A stretch of DNA of 64,000 bases from IMG/VR virus record IMGVR_UViG_3300031555_005249; one strand, given 5' to 3'. Positions 5,258 through 43,689 of this stretch are shown in pieces. This stretch comes from a virus. The notes below the pieces were generated by a model. The model saw only the letters and a list, made by a program, of their open reading frames with translations. It was not told the DNA's origin and made no database searches. Position numbers and translations under genes: made by a program. The first letter of the stretch is position 1; each line of letters opens with the position of its first letter.

Positions 5258-5739
5258 TAACTAATCCTTTCTGCGTATTGATTGGGAGAAGCCAATTTTA
5301 CGCCAAGTATTTCATCATAATGTGACTCAGTATTTGGAATATAGCGCCCAAATTTTATTATGATGTTTGAAAATTGTTTTAATTGAATTAATTCATTTTC
5401 AATCTCATCTTTATTATAACCTGTATAGATAATAATATCATCATTTATAGAATAACATTCTCTAAAAACAAAGATAAGATTTAACAGGTCTTCAAATGTA
5501 TCAAAAGGTTCTAGACCTTGGAAGCATATCGCGCGCGCGATAGGGTTGTTTCTATAAGCTTGTACTATTGAAGTGTTAGCAATTTCTTTATCAGGTGCGG
5601 CCACCAGTGCGCTATTTTGACACACTGGTTGGCCGCATTCACGATCGCATTTAAAACCTTTACAAATAGGCGTTTCTATTGTCATACAAGGAACTTTATA
5701 ATTTACAAAATCTTCAAATATAATTCCTTTTATTTTCAT
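5257..5739 (-). CDS. nrdG: Anaerobic ribonucleotide reductase activating protein (NrdG-like radical SAM)
   Basis: Cys cluster CKGFKCDRECGQPVC near the N-terminus, size about 160 aa, sits directly next to nrdD. Confidence 0.55.
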   Translation of the reverse strand: MKIKGIIFEDFVNYKVPCMTIETPICKGFKCDRECGQPVCQNSALVAAPDKEIANTSIVQAYRNNPIARAICFQGLEPFDTFEDLLNLIFVFRECYSINDDIIIYTGYNKDEIENELIQLKQFSNIIIKFGRYIPNTESHYDEILGVKLASPNQYAERIS

Positions 5740-8700
5740 TTATTAATAGGCTCCCATTTTCTCATTTTATATTCATTAGTTCTTTCTTTTGACCACGTCT
5801 TTATAGGGGTGTAAAAGCCAACGATACGAGTATATTCTGTTTCAACTGGTCGACCACATACTGGACAAGTGCGTCCATAGAAGGCATGGTTATTATCACA
5901 AGCTTGAATCTTGGTATTAAAAGCAAAATATGTTACTCCTGCATCAGAGATATAATTAACCATATCCCAAGCCTTATCAAAACTATCAAATGGGGCATCG
6001 ATATTGGCGTGTAGGATCGAACCTCCATTGCAATATCCATCAAACTCTGCGGCGATACGTACGCGCTCGGCAAGGGTTGTTTGTATACCAAGCGGAATAA
6101 ATTGATTACCATAAAGCGGTAAGTCAAAGATGCTCGCTTCCGGATAAAAGAATTTGTCTTTTTTCATTAGCTTTGCGGCAGCCGACTCTCCGGGGATCTA
6201 TTCAGTATTAACGTGATAATCGGCGCCTACCTCTGCAATAAATTCATCTGCCGTTTGACGTATAGTCTCAAAGATTCTTTTACCAAGCGACGAAGCATTT
6301 TCTGTATAGTAAACATTGCCAAATTCATCTGTACGAGTATAGCCAAAACGCTTCATTGTTTCATATACTCCGATAAAACCAATAGTATTATAAAGATGTT
6401 CAAAGTCGACTAACCCATTAGAAAAATTAGGTAATAGTCCTTTTTCAACATTACGACGAATAATATTACGTACACAATGTAGTGCTTGAAGATTCAAAAG
6501 TGTCAACTTCTTCAATCCACATAGATATTCAAATTCATTAGCACTATCAAGAGCGAGGCGCGCGAGGTTGATTGTAGAGACTTTAACTGAACCGACTTTT
6601 AGTGCGGTACCTCCGATACTATTAAAATAACCTAGGTCTTTAATATCACTCTTCAAACGACAACAGTTAGAAAGTGAAGTTACTGAATCATCAATAAATA
6701 GGTTACTGTCAGACCAGCGCATATTGTGTTTAACTGCCCAGCGCGCAAAATCTTCATCTTGGAATTTACCTTCTTGTTTTAGTAGAGAGATTGAAAGTAC
6801 TGGAAAAGTAAACATATTCTTGTCCCTGATATCAGCAACGGTTTCCATATACCATTTTTGGAATTCAATAATTTCTTCTTCATAGTCAATCATAAATTCT
6901 CCATTAGGGAACTCACTGCCGCCAAATAAAGCTTCGTAGTAAGGACGATCAAATACACTGGTATTAGTAAATGCAGATTGCGACCCATCGCGGACATAAG
7001 GTTGATTCACTGCGTATACAAAACGCTGGAAGTTTTGACGTGCATATTTCTCTCCATTTCCGCTACTCTTGATACCGAGATAGTCTTCTTCCATATCCTT
7101 ATGCCAAAAGTAATACATATAAGGGATGAGATTAGGAAGTCCTACGGCGCCGGAGGAACGATTAGAAGCATAGCTAATAAACTCTTTAACAAAATCAACA
7201 AAAGTAGTTAAATGCTAAGCAGGCTCAGGATTAAAAGGTGCGCCAATAAAATATAGTCCTTTTTCAGCCAGGTCTTTCAGGTCATAAGCAAAACAATTAT
7301 GAGATAGAATGTTGTTGCAAATAAAATGACCTGTTTTTGTTGTTAAGTCATATACCTCAGGGCATTCATCAATATACTCTGAGTTATCAATAACTGAGAC
7401 CCATCCATAGTTATATTCATATTGCTTGTTTTTAAAATTACCTTTACGAGTTAAAGGAATATATTTTTCAGCAATTTTAATACTTCCAATACGAGAAAAA
7501 TATTCTTCGTTCGTTAAAGTGAAGCCAATCCCAAACATTGGTAACTTTTGTTCGAAGCTTCCAGCTCGATTATATCTAAATGGAGTGCGATCTCCTGCAA
7601 AAACCCCTTTGGAATGTAAATACATACTCAATTGATGGCATAGCGTTTCTGAGGCAATACGGATATGACAATGTCTATTTTTATATCCATCAATAGTACC
7701 ATCGCCATCGATCATTCCCGCAATAATTCCATCCATAAATTCAGAAGGATAAGTCATGAAATATGATGGTAACTGCTTAGTTGCAGAAGTCTGACCTTTT
7801 AATAGTGAATTTAACCATTCTTCAAAAGGACTAACCTTTAAATAAATTTTTCTATCTCCACTTTCTGAATATGGAATATCATATTGGTCACAGATATATT
7901 TTAATTTTTCAGCTTGAGGAGAATCTAGTTTTTGAGCAATTACAAATTGACTATTCAGACTATTTCCTTCGGAAAGAGCCATACCTAATATCCATCCTGT
8001 CTCTCTATTATAAGGAATTTGATATACAATTTCTTGATGACTTTCAGAATATTTATTAGGCTGTATTGTAAAGACTCGATACTCACTAGTTACATCCTTT
8101 GCAGGAATATCTCCACAATCGGTAATAATAGGGTGATCTTCTGTTACAATTTGTGATAAACCATTTGCTAACTTGATAAAACGCATAGGTTTATTATTTG
8201 TGTGTTTAACTGCGCGAGTAATCTTAGTCCAACATTTTTCTCCAGTTTCTTCATTAATATCAAGTATCTCGATATTTTTCGGGAAAAGTGCATTTTGTTC
8301 AATAGATACATCATATTTTTCTTCTGCTTCTGTATCCATATACAAAATATTTTCATACAAATTCTTAAGTGCAAAAGTGTATTCACGATGCACCTTGTCT
8401 CTTACTGTTACAAGTTCTTCACCCTTATAGCAGTAATGTTTAAAGGTCGAGGTATCAGCATCATGCATGTAGAGCTGACCAATCCATTCGGCGCGCAACC
8501 ACTCATTTGCACGTTTAAAACCAAAATGTTTTTGCATCTCATAATGAATTTTATTATAAGCTAATAATTTTCTATGAGGTTTTGGCATTTCGTTTAAGAG
8601 AGTTACAATATCTTTTTTACTAACATTACTATTGCCATCAATACTCGCGTCAGCTACGACTTTGGTATCGATAAATGAACTAATAAAATCTGTGTAACTT

Positions 8701-8885
8701 AATTGTTCATCAGCAAATCCATTAAGCTTTGCCATTTCAGTTCCAAATTCATCTTGCATTTTGTTATAAGCAGTAACAAAATTTTTCTTTAATTTAACAT
8801 TAACTTCCATATCTCCAATGATATCCTCCTGTTGTTTGTAAAAATCCTTGACAGCATCGAGATATGTTTTCATGATGTATGCCAA
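5736..8885 (-). CDS. nrdD: Anaerobic ribonucleoside-triphosphate reductase NrdD, one continuous frame with 2 in-frame TAG (6198-6200, 7215-7217) and a LAGLIDADG intein
   Basis: Three listed ORFs (7215-8885, 6198-7118, 5736-6167) are in frame and separated only by TAG. C-terminus has the CPVCG Zn ribbon and the glycyl-radical region TRIVGFYTP. Confidence 0.8.
7296..8432 (-). mobile_element. Intein (379 aa) with LAGLIDADG homing-endonuclease domain inside NrdD
   Basis: Starts with Cys after ...TSTFKHY, ends ...ILSHN followed by Cys+1. Internal motifs LGMALSEGN and IAGMIDGDG. Confidence 0.75.
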
Positions 8886-9480
8886 GCTCTTTCTCTGCTT
8901 CTGCTAGAGATTTAAAGTTTTGATTTAGCTCCACACAATAAACTGGAGTAACTCTTTTATCTTCAGATAGAGGAAGATTATTTGATAAATAATCTTCATA
9001 GTATGTCCAATGAAATTTATATGCAGTGTGTAATTTTCCACGACAACACGCAATAATATTTGCATTAGCAAAACCCTTTAATCGTTCAATTTCTTTTGCG
9101 CTATCAAAAACCTTTTGTGTTTCTAAACATATAATTTTTCTTTTTGTTTTACAACTATTACTCATTTTTTGACGAGATTCTCTTGAATATTCATTATTCA
9201 ATCCGCCACTTTTTATATTATAGCCACTATTCACAGTATCATATTTTGTGATAAGTTCTTCTTCTTTTTGATTAGCTTCCTGTAATGTTAAGTTCTCATA
9301 TAAAATAGTCTATTCAAAATTATCCCATCCATATTTTTCAATAGCATGATAAAATTTAACACAGCCAGTATAGTTAGAGGGGTGACAGCGACGCGTGATA
9401 TCTTTAGACTAACCAATATATTTTTTGCCATTTATTTTATTGGTATAACAATAAATGCAATATTGATTATCCATTAGCAT
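8800..9480 (-). CDS. GIY-YIG homing endonuclease (I-TevI-like, NUMOD C-terminus), 2 in-frame TAG
   Basis: N-terminus MLMDNQYCIYCYTNKINGKKYIG-TAG-SKDI...R..H...AIEKYGWDNFE; a TAG sits at the conserved Gln of the YIGQ motif. Free-standing between nrdD and nrdH, as seen with T4 mob/seg genes. Confidence 0.75.
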
Positions 9481-25337: not shown

Positions 25338-26882
25338 TTAAAACGCTGATAAGTCAACGCTTTTCTTTACATTTATCTTAAAATCTTCTATATCAACTAA
25401 TTCATAACTATATTTAGTTACAAATATCGGATCTAATCTACAAATACCACGATCTGACTTAATCCAGACTAGAACATTCTTCCAACGACCTCGTCTATTC
25501 TTATAAATCGACATCTTAATATCTGGCATCTCACATCCAAGACGCTTAACCAAAGGCGCCAGCGCCTCTTTATCTTTATCCGTCGCCTCAAGTAAAATAG
25601 AACCAGCATCAATTTTATCTGCTATAGACTTTGCGCCACGAAGCAATCCTTGGTCATAAACCTCTGCCTCGTGATAATCATTACTCAACTGAGTCGCAGA
25701 CATAATAAATATTCCATACTGATTACACAAATCTTTAAGTCTTACGGAAATCATAAAGAGAATATTATCTTCTCTAAGGCGCACACCGCCGCTTCTTCGA
25801 GTAATCTCTTCGAGAATCTTCATACTCGTGTGTATATAGTCGTGGAATACGTACTTGATATCGTTCTCTCTAATGCCTTTCTTAATAACATTCTCAATGT
25901 CTTGTAATGAGAAATCTGGAAGTGCTTCAAAATAGATTTTTCCAGTCTTTAAGAGTTGCGCAGCATGGAGTGCGCGCTCCCATTCACCTTCAAGATATTC
26001 ACCTGTAACAATATGTTCCTCGTCAACACCAGATAAAAACGCTATCATCATGGTTTGAACTTCTGATAACTCTTGCTCTGTTGCTATATAAAGAGTGGCT
26101 TGTGGTTCACCTGTATTTATCCAAGTGCGTTCTTCAAGGCTATACATAGAACCACATCCAATATAACACGCATCTGCTACCATTGAACGCGTTTTACCAA
26201 CACCTGTTGCAGCTGAGCGCAAGTAAAATTTTTTCAAGCGCGCGCCGCGGAAAATAGTATTAATATATTTGCCATACAATGGGTATCCAAGCTCAGGCTT
26301 TTGTTTTAATTGCTCAAGAAGTAACTCCACACCTGCGCCCGCCTGAACAATATCGGCTTCGCAGTTGTCTACATAAACTGATTTAACTTCATCTATCTTT
26401 TTATCAATTAAATCTGCAATTTCTACAAGAGGTGTATTGTCTAACCAGTCCTCTTGTGCCTGTTTCTTCTTTGCATCAAAGATATTATCCATATCATAGA
26501 GCCACGATAAATCCATTCCACAGCGCTCGTTATACATGCGCAAGAGCGTCATCTTCTTAACTCTATCATAGTAATACTGAAAGGCGCTTAATTGTGTAGC
26601 CTCTTTAAGTTGCTCAAGATATTCTGCACCCTTATTTGATTTATATATCGCTTGGCGCTTAGGGCGCTGTGCAAGATAGTCTTCTATTGCATTGAGAGTT
26701 ATCTCCTTAGCGCCGAGCGCATGTAGATTATATATAGTTCCAAAAAGAGTCACGTGAAAGTCTTCACAAAAATCTTCTTCGTGGAAATGATAATTTTCAT
26801 TATCTAAAAGTGAGGGTTGGATATAGATAGCACCGATCACTTGCATTATTGCAGCGGTATCTACATATTTACTTTTGCTCAT
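25338..26882 (-). CDS. dnaB: Replicative DNA helicase (DnaB-like)
   Basis: DnaB-type N-terminal domain and RecA-like ATPase with Walker A SAATGVGKT. Confidence 0.75.
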   Translation of the reverse strand: MSKSKYVDTAAIMQVIGAIYIQPSLLDNENYHFHEEDFCEDFHVTLFGTIYNLHALGAKEITLNAIEDYLAQRPKRQAIYKSNKGAEYLEQLKEATQLSAFQYYYDRVKKMTLLRMYNERCGMDLSWLYDMDNIFDAKKKQAQEDWLDNTPLVEIADLIDKKIDEVKSVYVDNCEADIVQAGAGVELLLEQLKQKPELGYPLYGKYINTIFRGARLKKFYLRSAATGVGKTRSMVADACYIGCGSMYSLEERTWINTGEPQATLYIATEQELSEVQTMMIAFLSGVDEEHIVTGEYLEGEWERALHAAQLLKTGKIYFEALPDFSLQDIENVIKKGIRENDIKYVFHDYIHTSMKILEEITRRSGGVRLREDNILFMISVRLKDLCNQYGIFIMSATQLSNDYHEAEVYDQGLLRGAKSIADKIDAGSILLEATDKDKEALAPLVKRLGCEMPDIKMSIYKNRRGRWKNVLVWIKSDRGICRLDPIFVTKYSYELVDIEDFKINVKKSVDLSAF

Positions 26883-26889
26883 TGTTGCC

Positions 26890-27159
26890 TCACCTCATTT
26901 TAATATTTTGAATTTTATTACCAAGCTTATTGATCCATGCATGTGCTACTATTTTTGCATCTGACCCAATGAATACTATTTTACTTTTCATAAGATCAAG
27001 ATGATTTTTTAATCTACAAATTTTAATAACAACATCAAAATTAGCTTCAGCTTCAGCCGCCCAATTATAAAATGTTGTATCTGCTACTTCAAACCAGCCA
27101 AGATAATCAGAATCGTAGCGAGCTTTAGTGAATTTTAAAATTACTTTATGTTTTTTCAT
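26890..27159 (-). CDS. Hypothetical protein
   Basis: ORF track. Confidence 0.35.
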   Translation of the reverse strand: MKKHKVILKFTKARYDSDYLGWFEVADTTFYNWAAEAEANFDVVIKICRLKNHLDLMKSKIVFIGSDAKIVAHAWINKLGNKIQNIKMR

Positions 27160-27677
27160 TCCTCTTCCTCCAAATCATCTAAATTGAACAAACGCGGCGG
27201 TTTTACAATTCTCATAGGTGGTTCAATAGAGAACTCTCTAACCTTAACTTGAAAATGCTCTATGTCTTTATCTTCATTAGCGACCGCCGCCAGATATAGT
27301 GCATAGTAATAGGCGCACGCATCCTTGTAGACATAAGGTACAATGCCTATTGCACCGTTTGCTTTTTCCACATCGTTACCTTTTAATTCATACCACCACT
27401 TAAGCGTTTTTAATATTCCACTATAAGAATATTTATACACTTCTTTATATTCCTTAAGTTGTTTCCATACTCGCGGATTTAAATCCTCTCCTAAGAGGTA
27501 TTTTATATATTCGATTAATTCATTATAGTCTCGTTCTTCTTGAGACATTGATGCCATATGTGTTTCATAGCATTTTTGATGTGCGTAACGATTACCTTTT
27601 GGTTTGGCGCAAGGCTCAGAATTACGATCAAAAAGCTGGCCACAATACAGGCATTTAACCATTGCTTTGCTCGCCAT
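27156..27677 (-). CDS. Hypothetical protein with N-terminal Zn ribbon
   Basis: ORF track. Confidence 0.4.
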   Translation of the reverse strand: MASKAMVKCLYCGQLFDRNSEPCAKPKGNRYAHQKCYETHMASMSQEERDYNELIEYIKYLLGEDLNPRVWKQLKEYKEVYKYSYSGILKTLKWWYELKGNDVEKANGAIGIVPYVYKDACAYYYALYLAAVANEDKDIEHFQVKVREFSIEPPMRIVKPPRLFNLDDLEEEE

Positions 27678-27715
27678 TTATCTTTTTACCTCTTTTTATA
27701 CTTTTATATATATAT

Positions 27716-27744
27716 ATTATAACATAAATTAAATAAAAAGTCAA
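27716..27744 (-). promoter_or_regulatory. Consensus promoter TTGACT-17-TATAAT
   Basis: Member of the repeated promoter family. Confidence 0.5.
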
Positions 27745-27775
27745 TAGAGGATAATATCCTCTATTGACTTAATCA

Positions 27776-28264
27776 TTATTGAGCTGTATTTATCAAATCT
27801 TTAAGTTCCGTCACAATAAGGTCAAGCGCTTCTGTCTGTTCGCGAGAGCACTGAGAAACTTTTTGTCCTTTACCAAGATATTTCTCTATGCATTGACTAA
27901 TACGAGGTTGCCAATAAGTTTTGAATGTTTCTTCGTCGCTTTGAACCGAGAGGTCTTGAATCATTGAGTTAAACTGCATCATAAGTTCATCGAAATCAAG
28001 TTCTTTTGAAACGAATGTATGCAAGTTGGCGCCAGTATCTGTGAAGTATTGAGTTCCATCCTCAGCCGCCTGTCTATCAATAGCATCTCCTATTGCATTA
28101 ACAAGAGCATTATAGTTGAAGTCAATATAATCAGGCGTATACTTAAATCTACTTCCAGCTACGAAACGAGGAGTTCCGCGCATAAAGAGTTTTGTAGATT
28201 TCTCACCAGACTCAGACTCAACAGTTCTCGCATATCCTATTATGTCCTTTAATACCCTCTTTTT
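27776..28264 (-). CDS. Sak4-like (AAA_24) recombination ATPase, exon 2
   Basis: Begins exactly after the group I intron terminal G. Sequence KKRVLKDIIGYARTVESESGEKSTKLFMRGTPRFVAGSR is remembered to resemble the AAA_24 C-terminal region. The listed ORF start is a TTG artefact. Confidence 0.5.
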   Translation of the reverse strand, partial: KKRVLKDIIGYARTVESESGEKSTKLFMRGTPRFVAGSRFKYTPDYIDFNYNALVNAIGDAIDRQAAEDGTQYFTDTGANLHTFVSKELDFDELMMQFNSMIQDLSVQSDEETFKTYWQPRISQCIEKYLGKGQKVSQCSREQTEALDLIVTELKDLINTAQ

Positions 28265-29250
28265 CAAGATATTTTAATGGGAATAGACTATATCTTCATC
28301 CATTTTAAACGGTGGATGTCATGCACTTCGATTTAAAGGATTTTCACCTACTTTTATATTATTATAAAAGCCCTACTCCTGTTGAGGAAATTTCATCCTC
28401 CAGTGGGATAGTCGTTGAACCTTCTCCTATTCGGAGCTTGGCTGCTGATTGCCCAATTTAATCAATTTTTAACATTCGCACTTAGATTTCTTTCATTCTT
28501 ATGCTGTAGTTTGATTAACTCTAAGGGGTTTCCAGCAATTCACATGATTTGCTTAATGGATTGCTCCATTAAGGGCCTTATATATTTCATATTTTCGTCT
28601 CAACCGAGAGGCCTCGGTTGAATGTTCATAAATTTTATTTAAAATTTGTACAACTGCAGCGCCTTCTTTATGAATTTGATAAGCAGAGGTTCCACAAGGA
28701 CTTACTTTATTATCAAACTCTAAAATTTCTAGCATTTGTTTTGTGCAGATCTCAGTTTGACTGACAAAACTTAAACTAGGAATATTGTTTCTATCTTCTC
28801 TAATGTGAATACTACCATCTGCATCTAGCAATCCTCTTGCAAAATCATAAATATATTCATTAGGAATGTTTTCAAGGGGAATACTAAAAATAGAGGTTTT
28901 TGCAGGTACTATATTATATTGTGCTAAATAACGTTTTAACTCTGCCGAGTTTATAGATACAGTTAAAGCATGACATCCAGTGTTATTAGTACGCTCTGTA
29001 ATGGGCGCATTAGATTCAAAGAATGCTTGTAAATTTTCAAGCTGCTCTCTATCTATATCTTTTAACTCAACTCTTACTCTGGCTTCATTTTTAGCTACAT
29101 TTCCATCTCCAGCTAAAAATCCAAGCCAATAATATTTTTCATGAGGGTCTATTTTAATGTTTGTTAAATTTAAAGGATATTTTCTCAAAAAACTTTCAAC
29201 TCCTTCTTTAAGAGAGCGAAAATATGAAATAAAAATGTTAAGCCATACGG
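28265..29250 (-). mobile_element. Group I intron (minus strand) splitting the Sak4-like gene and carrying a LAGLIDADG homing endonuclease ORF; exact 5' splice site not resolved (about 29241-29335)
   Basis: Canonical core elements in order: P AAATTGGGCAA (28449-28459), Q AATCAGCAGC (28441-28450), R GTTCAACGACTATCC (28406-28420), S AAGATATAGTC (28287-28297). Intron ends with G at 28265. A possible P10 (CTCTT with exon-2 AAGAG) is present. Confidence 0.6.
28553..29188 (-). CDS. LAGLIDADG homing endonuclease (double-motif), encoded within the group I intron
   Basis: Motifs LGFLAGDGNV and LLDADGSI; TTG start preceded by AAGGAG. Confidence 0.8.
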   Translation of the reverse strand: MRKYPLNLTNIKIDPHEKYYWLGFLAGDGNVAKNEARVRVELKDIDREQLENLQAFFESNAPITERTNNTGCHALTVSINSAELKRYLAQYNIVPAKTSIFSIPLENIPNEYIYDFARGLLDADGSIHIREDRNNIPSLSFVSQTEICTKQMLEILEFDNKVSPCGTSAYQIHKEGAAVVQILNKIYEHSTEASRLRRKYEIYKALNGAIH

Positions 29251-29807
29251 TTTACAATATTACGAGGTTTATTATCAAGAGTAGGAACAATCTGATTATA
29301 CTCATTGCCATTTTGATCCTTAAAGGTTTTGTCTTGCGCGTGAGAAATAATTACTAAGCCGTATCCTAATTGAAGGATTGAACGAAGCGCGCTATCAAAC
29401 TCTTGCGCTGCCATTTTGAAGCCCTTTCCGTAACCAATGTCACCGATGCTATCGACGCCTATAGAGCCATCTGGACGAACTGCATTGGCGCAAATATATT
29501 TCTCACAATAGTCATAGGCTATATCAGCTGTATCAAGGATAATAGTTTCGAATCTAGCTTTAACCTGTTCATTCTTTAACTGGCGCAAGAATTTTTTAAA
29601 CTCAGACCAACTATTAATAGGTTGTGCCATGGCGCCGGGAATTGCATTATATCCTTTTTCAAAAGCCGCCAAAAGATGATTAGGGAATTTAGTCGCGGTA
29701 GTAGTTTTACCGGTCTTTGCGTCTCCATAGAAGAAGACGCAATAACCGCGCATATCTCTTGAAACCTAATGAGGCTAAATATCAAGTAAATTAAAATCTG
29801 CCATTTT
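29238..29807 (-). CDS. Sak4-like (AAA_24) recombination ATPase, exon 1 (the 3' part of this ORF probably continues into the intron); 2 in-frame TAG near the N-terminus
   Basis: MADFNLLDI-Q-PH-Q-VSRDMRGYCVFFYGDAKTGKTT... has the Walker A and ILDTAD motifs. ATG at 29807 is in frame with the listed ORF. Confidence 0.6.
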
Positions 29808-29823
29808 CACTTACCTCTTTTTA

Positions 29824-30789
29824 TCAGAAGTTAAAGCCACCAGCTTTTGCCTGAGGAGCGGCGGGCGCTGCTACAGGATTATTTCTCTGTGCCTTATACT
29901 CTTCACTTCTCTTCTTTTCCTCGGCAAGCTTAACCTGTCTATCCTGCATAGCCTTTGTAAGCTCTTCTCCAGTAAGAATACCCTCTTCACCAAAGTCATA
30001 AGGATTCTGCGAAGCTCTTACAACAAGCCATTCTTTAGTCTTGCGCTCAAAGGTTCTTACAGACTCGCCGCCAAATGCAGTCTCTTCCTTGACCTCGTTC
30101 TTAACAGTATTGCAGTTAATAATACCTTCAACCCAAGTGTAAACAGGCTCGCTACCAGACACGCCAAGTTCTTCAAAGTAATTCATACCGTTAGGATTCT
30201 TAACTGTAAAGGTAAGAGGAAGAAGTTCTTTACGGAAATTAAATACTGCACCGCGAAGAGCAACATGTTCATCAATGTTTTTCTCTTTATCTTCATCTAC
30301 ATGAGTTACATTTGTGATAACCATATCACAGCGGAAATAAGTTCTCTCTGCTTCGTTCTCAGGAAGAGTGTTTACGATTGTTGCAAAACCACCCTCGTGC
30401 ATTACCTGAGAGACAAGTTTATCTTCACCATTCTCATTGATATAGAAATCATTGAGCGCAAAAGAAGGCTCGAGTTTAACCATAGGTGCAGCATCCTTGC
30501 CGTCCTTTACCCAAGTCTTACCGCCATCGATAAGTGCCTTAAGAGCGGTAAAGGTATTGTTGGTGCCGCCATTCTTTGTGGTGGGGGTTACAAAAGTGTA
30601 GTGAACAGGAATTACATTAAGACCTGCTTCATCTACTGCAACCTGGATAGTTCCTGCAATAAACTCCTTACCGAAGTTCTCAGACTTTTCATTCTTTACA
30701 GTCTTTACTTCAAGCATATTTCTTCCATTTGCTTCTCCAAAACTGTAAACTCTTCCTTGAATTGTAATTGAATTCTTTGTGTACTTCAT
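29824..30789 (-). CDS. Hypothetical protein (321 aa); possibly an ssDNA-binding partner of Sak4
   Basis: ORF track; functional guess from position only. Confidence 0.3.
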   Translation of the reverse strand: MKYTKNSITIQGRVYSFGEANGRNMLEVKTVKNEKSENFGKEFIAGTIQVAVDEAGLNVIPVHYTFVTPTTKNGGTNNTFTALKALIDGGKTWVKDGKDAAPMVKLEPSFALNDFYINENGEDKLVSQVMHEGGFATIVNTLPENEAERTYFRCDMVITNVTHVDEDKEKNIDEHVALRGAVFNFRKELLPLTFTVKNPNGMNYFEELGVSGSEPVYTWVEGIINCNTVKNEVKEETAFGGESVRTFERKTKEWLVVRASQNPYDFGEEGILTGEELTKAMQDRQVKLAEEKKRSEEYKAQRNNPVAAPAAPQAKAGGFNF

Positions 30790-43614: not shown

Positions 43615-43689
43615 TGGCAGGGGAGGTAGGAATCGAACCTACGTCTGTGGTTTTAGAGACCACGGTCTTGACCTTTCGACGACTCCCCA
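43615..43689 (-). tRNA. Amber suppressor tRNA (anticodon CUA, reads UAG), class I, with U1-U72 mismatch and G73 (Gln-like identity)
   Basis: Hand-folded cloverleaf: acceptor 6 bp, D-arm, anticodon stem GTGGT/ACCAC with loop CT-CTA-AA, T-arm GTAGG-TTCGATT-CCTAC, CCA encoded. Confidence 0.8.

Follow-up and report, generated by a model that had tools for sequence, protein, structure and literature searches.

The group I introns in the td, nrdB and nrdD (sunY) genes of phage T4 are self-splicing and belong to subgroup IA2, and their enzymes are endonucleases of the GIY-YIG (I-TevI, I-TevII) or HNH type whose open reading frames (ORFs) occupy the loops of P6 or P9. Here we describe an element within positions 27776..29807 of a 64,000-nucleotide (nt) stretch of viral DNA, IMG/VR record IMGVR_UViG_3300031555_005249 (this whole stretch is termed the window below), that is very probably a mobile group I intron, IA-like with P7.1 and P7.2, in a gene for a Sak4-like (YorG-like) ATPase of the AAA_24 family. 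The element resembles the T4 introns in being phage-borne, in the placement of P7.1 and P7.2 between P7 and the 3' strand of P3, and in interrupting a conserved motif of a DNA-metabolism gene; as in T4, the upstream exon runs into a stop codon at or near the intron start and the internal endonuclease ORF has translation signals of its own. By contrast to T4, the enzyme in the window is of the LAGLIDADG type and is encoded in the loop of P1, and the interrupted gene is that of a Sak4-like ATPase, not of thymidylate synthase or ribonucleotide reductase.

ORFs in the P1 loop have been described for fungal mitochondrial group I introns (PMC4964425, PMC7902536). Fungal introns of this type share with the window a double-motif LAGLIDADG ORF in the P1 loop, such that P1 must form across the whole ORF; they are organellar, their ORFs often continue the upstream exon as an in-frame fusion, and the proteins act in some cases as maturases. 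The ORF in the window differs from these in residing in a bacteriophage and in being free-standing, with a reading frame other than that of exon 1 and with its own ribosome-binding site (RBS) and TTG start.

Comparison of the region by megablast with 50,697 phage records revealed no close cultured relative, and the only match was to a 57-nt segment of core (94.7% identity) in introns of Enterocloster phages. In Enterocloster phage CB457P1 and its relatives, which are likewise Firmicutes phages, this P4'-P6-P7 core is similar to that of the window, whereas the introns lie in another gene and genomic context and an I-TevI-like ORF ('intron-associated endonuclease 1', GIY-YIG-type) is found downstream of the core instead of a LAGLIDADG ORF in P1. 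In CB457P1 itself (L004; OP172753.1, 8463-8519) the group I core lies just upstream of the I-TevI-like ORF, and no feature is annotated under the match. An intron with a LAGLIDADG gene is an ordinary, known kind of mobile element. Full-text searches of the literature for a group I intron in a Sak4 or AAA_24 gene gave no relevant result, and the Sak4-like gene seems to be new as the host of a group I intron.

An intron between codons 188 and 189 of the Sak4-like gene

Three ORFs follow one another on the minus strand of 27776..29807: one of 171 amino acids (aa; 29753..29238), one of 211 aa with a TTG start (29188..28553) and one of 163 aa, also with a TTG start (28267..27776). By Pfam analysis the first was assigned to AAA_24 and the second to LAGLIDADG_3 plus LAGLIDADG_1, while no Pfam family was assigned to the third. 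When the whole window was analyzed with cmscan, Intron_gpI (RF00028) was the sole non-tRNA Rfam match above threshold; it spanned 28620..28265 on the minus strand and the full model (1-253) with 78.2 bits and an E value of 3.6e-18, compared to a gathering cut-off of 50 bits. A preliminary description of this DNA had proposed a group I intron with a LAGLIDADG gene splitting a Sak4-like recombinase gene and had suggested Infernal as a check on the minus strand. The proposal is borne out by these Rfam and Pfam matches and by the spliced product, which covers positions 2-195 of the 195 in AAA_24 (PF13479; E 1.7e-35), compared to 2-160 for exon 1 alone.

A protein database search with exon 1 joined to the frame of exon 2 yielded 3467 homologues, the best of which are uninterrupted, 343-346 aa in length and align along the full query (100%) with identities of up to 95%. 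The aligned homologues, 13 of them uninterrupted, all read ...PRNIVNRMA|DIIGYA... at the junction. In the DNA of the closest intron-less allele (L001), ...AAT CGT ATG GCG is followed directly by GAT ATC ATT GGC... (...CGTATGGCG GATATCATT...; around the site, ...AATCGTATGGCGGATATCATTGGCTATGC...), at the position where the window has ...AAC CGT ATG GCT, then 994 nt, and then GAC ATA ATA GGA.... Because the uninterrupted homologues and the intron-less allele read straight across the gap, the intron was placed at 29240..28247 on the minus strand (994 nt), between codons 188 and 189 (..NRMA|DIIGY..) of the following gene.

29241..29804 (-): exon 1, codons 1-188, ending ...CGT ATG GCT, by alignment to uninterrupted homologues
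27776..28246 (-): exon 2, codons 189-344 and stop, beginning GAC ATA ATA GGA TAT (DIIGY), by homologue alignment

The 5' splice site, left open in the preliminary description, is fixed by this alignment directly after T 29241, making U the last base of exon 1, and the 3' splice site lies directly after G 28247, with exon 2 beginning GAC at 28246. Group I introns follow a U at the end of exon 1 and themselves end in G. The first bases of the intron, UAA, are an in-frame stop for exon 1, and its 3' end is ...GGGUAUUAAAG, the last G of which is the terminal guanosine (omega-G). Excision restores a 344-aa ORF that is collinear with the uninterrupted homologues, and the predicted ligated junction is GCU|GAC (...CGUAUGGCU|GACAUAAUAGG). 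In-frame candidates for a 5' splice site further upstream than 29241 are at odds with the aligned homologues and were discarded. Exon 2 had been read as a continuation of the AAA_24/Sak4 C-terminal sequence, and the Sak4 homologues do continue through it, so that an exon-2 counterpart in these proteins stands beside the group I model match.

The spliced protein also matches PHROG 124, 'Sak4-like ssDNA annealing protein' (E 2.9e-52, residues 6-329), and its sequence includes a Walker A motif (GDAKTGKT), a Walker B motif (ILDTAD) and a C-terminal extension of ~130 aa beyond the AAA_24 domain. The name Sak4-like is taken from family annotation, and single-strand annealing is thus a putative function. 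Homologue alignment places the start of the gene at ATG 29804..29802; the codon at 29753, where the exon-1 ORF had earlier been thought to begin, is an internal Met. The gene runs through two in-frame TAG codons (29777-29775 and 29768-29766), giving the N-terminus MADFNLLDI*PH*VSRD. At both TAG positions, relatives whose genes were translated under table 11 have true Gln codons. The window also has a tRNA gene with anticodon CUA (43615..43689, minus strand), and several long ORFs stay open only when TAG is taken as sense, including 54192..57041 and 5736..8924 (both minus strand; 950 and 1063 codons). The phage appears to read TAG as glutamine. Separate from the suppressor tRNA at 43.6 kb is a cluster of five tRNAs (Cys-GCA, Gly-TCC, Thr-TGT, Leu-TAG and Asn-GTT) at 62301..63892 on the minus strand.

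Ribozyme core, P1 and covariation

Relatives were reached through the protein database and the encoding contigs. Introns at the same codon were found in ten distinct metagenome relatives (L005/6, L007, L008/9, L010/11, L012, L015, L017/30, L032, L033 and L034), and tblastn with the intron-less protein located the interruption at RM[A/C/V] | D[I/L/V][I/Y]GY in all ten. The Sak4-like proteins of these relatives are 35-95% identical to that of the window. Exon 1 ends in T in every relative, and ...AAAG ends every complete intron (8 complete). Some homologous introns are missed at the Rfam gathering threshold (the downstream intron of L008 scored 45.4 bits, and L010/L011 gave no match at E 0.1); these were included because of alignment and covariation.

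The eight complete introns were aligned with MAFFT after removal of the ORF, with 8 nt of each exon kept (alignment A2). By use of RNAalifold, P1, P2, P3, P4, P5/P5a, P6, P7.1, P7.2, P8 and P9 were found, with compensatory change in 41 of 90 pairs. For the pair count, two spurious RNAalifold helices were replaced by the P7 pseudoknot. Standard pairs were then present in 96.0% of cells, compared to 83.2% in shuffles and 36-48% when partners were slid, and both sides had changed in 40 of the 85 pairs, compared to a shuffle mean of 21.7; the observed values were reached by none of 500 shuffles. Compensatory changes affected four of the five pairs of P3 and six of the eight pairs of P2. The minimum free energy (MFE) fold of the window's own ORF-deleted intron had P1 with a U·G pair at the splice site together with the rest of the core (z score -4.1). 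The helices are located as follows.

28286..28547 (-): catalytic core, from the Rfam match and covariation
28552..28573 (-): P2 hairpin CUUAAUGGA-GCAA-UCCAUUAAG with a GNRA loop, from covariation; includes the endonuclease stop codon
28547-42 with 28324-19 (-): P3
within 28540-29 and 28450-41 (-): P4, the 5' strand (the true P element) being AATTGCTGGAAA at 28540..28529
within the catalytic core, 28286..28547 (-): P5/P5a
28441-20 (-): P6
within 28420-06 (5' strand) and 28296-86 (3' strand) (-): P7
28401-384 (-): P7.1, a covarying hairpin
28371-50 (-): P7.2, a covarying hairpin
28349-37 (-): a further covarying hairpin
28318-297 (-): P8
28247..28285 (-): P9, a CCC/GGG base and an inner UCUU-GAAA-AAGA hairpin, then UAUUAAAG ending at G 28247

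The strings that had been quoted for the elements P, Q, R and S are all present on the minus strand (AAATTGGGCAA at 28459..28449, AATCAGCAGC at 28450..28441, GTTCAACGACTATCC at 28420..28406 and AAGATATAGTC at 28296..28286). R and S are indeed the complementary strands of P7 (GACUAU/AUAGUC, with 6 of 6 pairs invariant in 8 of 8 related introns). The label P was misplaced, as the string that bore it is the P5 3' strand plus J5/4 and the real P, AATTGCTGGAAA, is the partner of Q. Three covarying hairpins occupy the interval between P7 and the P3 3' strand (28401-384, 28371-350 and 28349-337). Such P7.1/P7.2 helices are characteristic of subgroup IA, to which the introns of phage T4 belong, and the helix layout of the window's intron points to subgroup IA (IA2-like). 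Part of P3'/P8 (28308-28324) and a segment in the middle of the endonuclease coding sequence (28968-28984) make up a 17-nt inverted repeat (88% complementary), which may reflect chance or an alternative pairing.

The 3' end of the intron had been placed in the preliminary description at G 28265, where the exon-2 ORF begins, and a splice site at this position would leave the residues KKRVLK in the mature protein. The cmscan alignment ends there, an open frame continuous with exon 2 follows, and the AAA_24 score of the protein with this 6-residue insert is essentially unchanged at 123 bits. However, the Rfam alignment stops inside the P9 element, and its own version of P9 has non-canonical pairs; nucleotides 28264..28247 are the 3' half of a P9 whose inner hairpin covaries in relatives (UCUU/AAGA, UCGG/CCGA, UCUC/GAGA and UUCC/GGAA). 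All 8 complete introns have ...AAAG| right before the Asp codon, and KKRVLK is found in 0 of the 13 aligned uninterrupted homologues and is absent from the DNA of the 95%-identical allele. A 3' splice site after G 28265 is thus extremely unlikely, and the intron end is G 28247, 18 nt downstream.

P1 is formed between the end of exon 1 and a distant guide, and is continued by an extension helix.

29241..29244 (-): P1 5' strand, exon GGCU, with U 29241 in the U·G wobble at the 5' splice site
28574..28577 (-): internal guide sequence GGCC, the P1 3' strand, directly upstream of P2
29217..29231 (-): 5' strand of the P1 extension helix, UAUUUCAUAUUUUCG, in the untranslated intron leader
28583..28597 (-): 3' strand of the P1 extension helix, CGAAAAUAUGAAAUA, encoding the conserved R-K-Y-E-I near the endonuclease C-terminus

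In the window, exon GGCU (29244-29241) and the intron U pair with A-GGCC (28578-28574), the wobble being U 29241·G 28577. The guide is directly upstream of P2 and ~660 nt from the 5' splice site, and the endonuclease gene is therefore in the terminal loop of P1. Exon and guide covary among the introns by compensatory change (GGCU:GGCC in the window; GGUU:GACC in L007; GGCU:GGUC in L008, L012, L032 and L034; and GUGU:GCAC, with A-U instead of U-A at +1, in L010, L015, L017 and L033), and the U·G at the splice site is kept in 12 of 12 sequences compared, through all four variants. MAFFT places the window guide one column off in alignment A2, which accounts for the few unpaired cells in helix 1 ('UA:2', 'other:2'); the U·G register was taken from direct inspection and the MFE fold.

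The extension helix, which adjoins P1, is a 15-nt perfect inverted repeat (100% complementary) with a duplex energy of -28.6 kcal/mol, compared to -11.0 ± 3.0 in shuffles (z score -5.9; 0 of 300 shuffles as good). An equivalent helix between leader and ORF end was detected in 11 of 11 introns tested (z scores -2.1 to -7.1), and the leader covaries with the strand coding for R-K-Y-x-I (UUUCAUAUUUUCG/CGAAAAUAUGAAA in the window, UAUUAUAUUUUCUA/UAGAAAAUAUAAUA in L032). The helix probably brings the distant 5' splice site to the catalytic core. The last ~15 endonuclease codons thereby double as P1 extension, guide sequence and P2 5' half.

An alternative guide, GAGGCCUC, in a local hairpin at 28621..28602 was rejected, as it is not conserved in relatives and adjoins neither P2 nor the extension helix. 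The hairpin itself is a perfect one of 8 bp (CAACCGAG-GCCT-CTCGGTTG, 28602..28621, minus strand) within the 3' end of the endonuclease coding sequence, immediately before the P1 extension, and was found in the window and its 96% relative L005/L006 (with loop and closing pair altered) but not in more distant introns. A different feature was observed in the relatives with exon end AUGUGU (L010, L015, L017 and L033), where the intron leader at about +35 to +45 includes GUCAC(A/C)CA(U) (GUCACACAU in L015, L017 and L033; GUCACCCACA in L010). Most of this segment can pair with the exon end (all of it in three of the four relatives), and it could compete with the GCAC guide for P1; the window has no equivalent of it.

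Several observations weigh against the assignment of a group I intron with these boundaries. Covariation gives no signal for P7 or for the CCC/GGG base of P9, both of which are invariant. P1 of the window has only 5 contiguous pairs at the splice site, and an internal loop separates these from the extension helix; no convincing P10 pairing was found in the window's intron, and only the GUGU-type relatives allow a P10 (5 bp) to be drawn. In addition, a splice pair one base off (..AUGGC|U... and ...AAA|G) also encodes Ala-Asp, and such a shift cannot be excluded by protein alignment alone. The shifted pair was rejected on two other grounds: C at -1 and A at the intron end break the U(-1)/terminal-G rules, and in the GUGU-type relatives (exon end UGU) Trp would replace the Cys of the homologues.

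The lack of an evident P10 would also suit a relic intron that has lost the ability to splice, the Sak4-like gene then being a pseudogene or yielding two polypeptides, with exon 2 translated from TTG 28267; the ORF finder does list a TTG-start ORF at 28267..27776. We consider such a relic very unlikely. All core helices are intact and have been kept by compensatory substitutions across hosts with Sak4-like proteins as little as 35% and up to 95% identical, a pattern that requires selection on RNA structure. The endonuclease ORF is also intact, with both catalytic Asp residues present, and exon codons are conserved up to both junctions. KKRVLK has no counterpart in any intron-less homologue, and its partial conservation in intron-bearing relatives (e.g., ERVLK) coincides with conserved P9 RNA. 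Taken together, the core, the boundaries, the covariation, the restored frame and the recurrence at the same site in relatives are those of a group I intron, and every group I feature that could be tested at the sequence level was found. A mobile group I intron of this type is predicted to self-splice in a guanosine-dependent manner, and its catalysis and homing are probable.

The endonuclease gene and other insertion sites

28553..29188 (-): homing endonuclease gene, 211 aa, TTG start, in the P1 terminal loop; motifs LGFLAGDGN and RGLLDADGS
29200..29206 (-): Shine-Dalgarno-like GAAGGAG, read from the sequence 11 nt upstream of the TTG; putative function

The N-terminus encoded from this TTG (M-RKY...) aligns exactly with the N-termini of homologues. 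The protein matches PF14528 (LAGLIDADG_3) over residues 19-89 (E 2.6e-8) and PF00961 (LAGLIDADG_1) over residues 119-151 (E 1.1e-4), and its catalytic acidic residues D28 (LAGDG) and D124 (LDADG) are invariant in 18 homologues. Single-sequence phmmer against PDB gave no meaningful match. The endonuclease family profile matched I-Tsp061I (PDB 2DCH) over both domains (query 22-182, chain 26-190, E 2.6e-5). I-Tsp061I, which comes from an archaeal rRNA intron, is a monomeric LAGLIDADG homing endonuclease of 216 aa, compared to 211 aa for the product in the window, and the match is a remote one. The ORF product is probably a monomeric double-motif LAGLIDADG endonuclease, for which DNA cleavage and homing are predicted.

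Twenty-four homologues of the endonuclease (47-96% identity) were found in the protein database, and a search of viral contigs with the endonuclease revealed no related loci. In every homologue contig fetched, the endonuclease lies inside an interrupted AAA_24 gene, in the order YorF-like, AAA_24, YorH-like, DnaB-like. A search with the core signature GGTTCAACGACTATCC..GATGAAATTTC retrieved further loci, most with the intron at another codon of the same gene. This second site, aa 88/89 in Walker B (FET[IV]|I[ILV]DTAD), is occupied in L013 (2470-3565), L016, L018-L022, L024 and L027-L029 by introns with the same ribozyme core signature, P9 and 3' end as the intron in the window, and the endonucleases P0141 and P0142 at this site (L013/L014) are 47-49% identical to that of the window. 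A third site, aa 31/32 inside Walker A, holds group I introns with LAGLIDADG ORFs in L008 (593-2085), L010 (740-1938) and L020 (8142-9279).

It is established that homing endonuclease genes can enter introns on their own, and the gene in the window might likewise be a free-standing invader (e.g., a late insertion into an ORF-less intron) that does not mobilise the intron. Its own RBS and start are compatible with this, as is the occurrence of similar LAGLIDADG genes, the nearest in cultured phages at only ~30-33% identity, in unrelated crAss-like, Providencia and Proteus phages. By contrast, ORF and ribozyme were found together in every relative examined, and the C-terminal codons of the ORF are physically part of P1 and P2. 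The two are also together at aa 88/89, where the core signature is the same and the ORF is 47-49% identical, which argues that the pair moves as one unit. An independent invader is thus unlikely, and one intron-plus-endonuclease lineage has apparently moved between two sites of one gene. Only tentatively, and with somewhat more doubt than confidence, do we extend this to the proposal that the Sak4/YorG gene may be an intron hot spot at three catalytically critical codons in uncultured TAG-recoded Firmicutes phages, that one intron-plus-endonuclease lineage may have jumped between two of these codons, and that the last codons of the endonuclease may act as a built-in translation/splicing switch.

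The exons of the window differ from the intron-less allele L001 at -10, -1, +2, +5, +8, +11, +17 and +23 (29251..29241 and 28246..28224), a cluster around the insertion site in which the differences at -1, +2, +5, +8 and +11 are synonymous; all of the listed differences in exon 2 are at third codon positions. This cluster and the occupation of one site in diverged hosts give indirect evidence of homing. Differences so near the insertion site are compatible with co-conversion or a cleavage-resistant site, an indication that is weak at an overall DNA identity of 88.7%.

For a mobile group I intron with a homing endonuclease gene in its P1 loop, the following sequence of events may be proposed. 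The Sak4-like gene would be transcribed from ATG 29804 through 27776, and ribosomes on exon 1 would stop at the UAA of intron bases +1 to +3. Upon folding of the intron, exon GGCU would pair with the guide GGCC ~660 nt downstream, a long-range contact made possible by the 15-bp extension helix, which closes the P1 loop (~620 nt, with the endonuclease gene inside). Exogenous guanosine would attack after U 29241, the freed exon 1 would attack after the terminal G 28247, and the ligated mRNA would encode the 344-aa protein. The intron ORF would be translated from its own RBS and TTG into the double-motif LAGLIDADG endonuclease, which in mixed infections is expected to cut intron-less alleles (..CGTATGGCG|GATATCATTGGC..) and thereby lead to the intron being copied in (homing). 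Because the last endonuclease codons overlap the P1 3' strand, the guide and P2, ribosomes finishing the endonuclease would unfold P1, and endonuclease synthesis would exclude ribozyme folding and splicing, and vice versa, on any one RNA molecule.

Genomic neighborhood and significance

The Sak4-like gene is part of a replication module at 25338..30789 on the minus strand that has the SPbeta gene order, yorF-yorG-yorH-yorI (DnaB) being common to SPbeta and the window.

29824..30789 (-): YorF-like gene
27738..27770 (-): terminator-like hairpin of 15 pairs plus a T-run, directly after the Sak4-like gene
27156..27677 (-): YorH-like gene
25338..26882 (-): DnaB-like helicase gene

The hairpin at the gene end overlaps a near-consensus promoter for the YorH-like gene (27716..27744, minus strand; TTGACT-17-TATAAT with an extended -10 TG). 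YorG of the SPbeta group is a homologous full-length protein (29.5% identity) and is matched without interruption, whereas the gene in the window is split. The Sak4-like proteins of Enterococcus phages VRE9/EF1 (49.6% identity) are also encoded, unlike that of the window, in a single uninterrupted stretch; the ~140-kb Enterococcus phages, at this 49.6% aa identity, are the source of the nearest cultured homologues of the Sak4-like protein.

In the output of gene callers the gene falls into three pieces (a shortened AAA_24 ORF, an 'endonuclease' and a hypothetical protein), and the recoded TAGs hide its true start; recognition of the intron gives back a complete 344-aa recombination/replication protein. 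The Sak4-like annealase gene thus joins the phage genes invaded by group I introns, and many metagenomic phages of gut and rumen type carry an intron of this family at the same codon. New meganuclease specificities might be drawn from the LAGLIDADG family (24 members, 47-96% identity). With a second codon of the same gene occupied, the family provides a compact natural system for the co-evolution of endonuclease target and guide. Should the Sak4/YorG gene indeed prove to be an intron hot spot between the codons of which one lineage jumped, these introns would constitute a natural series for the joint retargeting of a LAGLIDADG enzyme and a ribozyme guide sequence.

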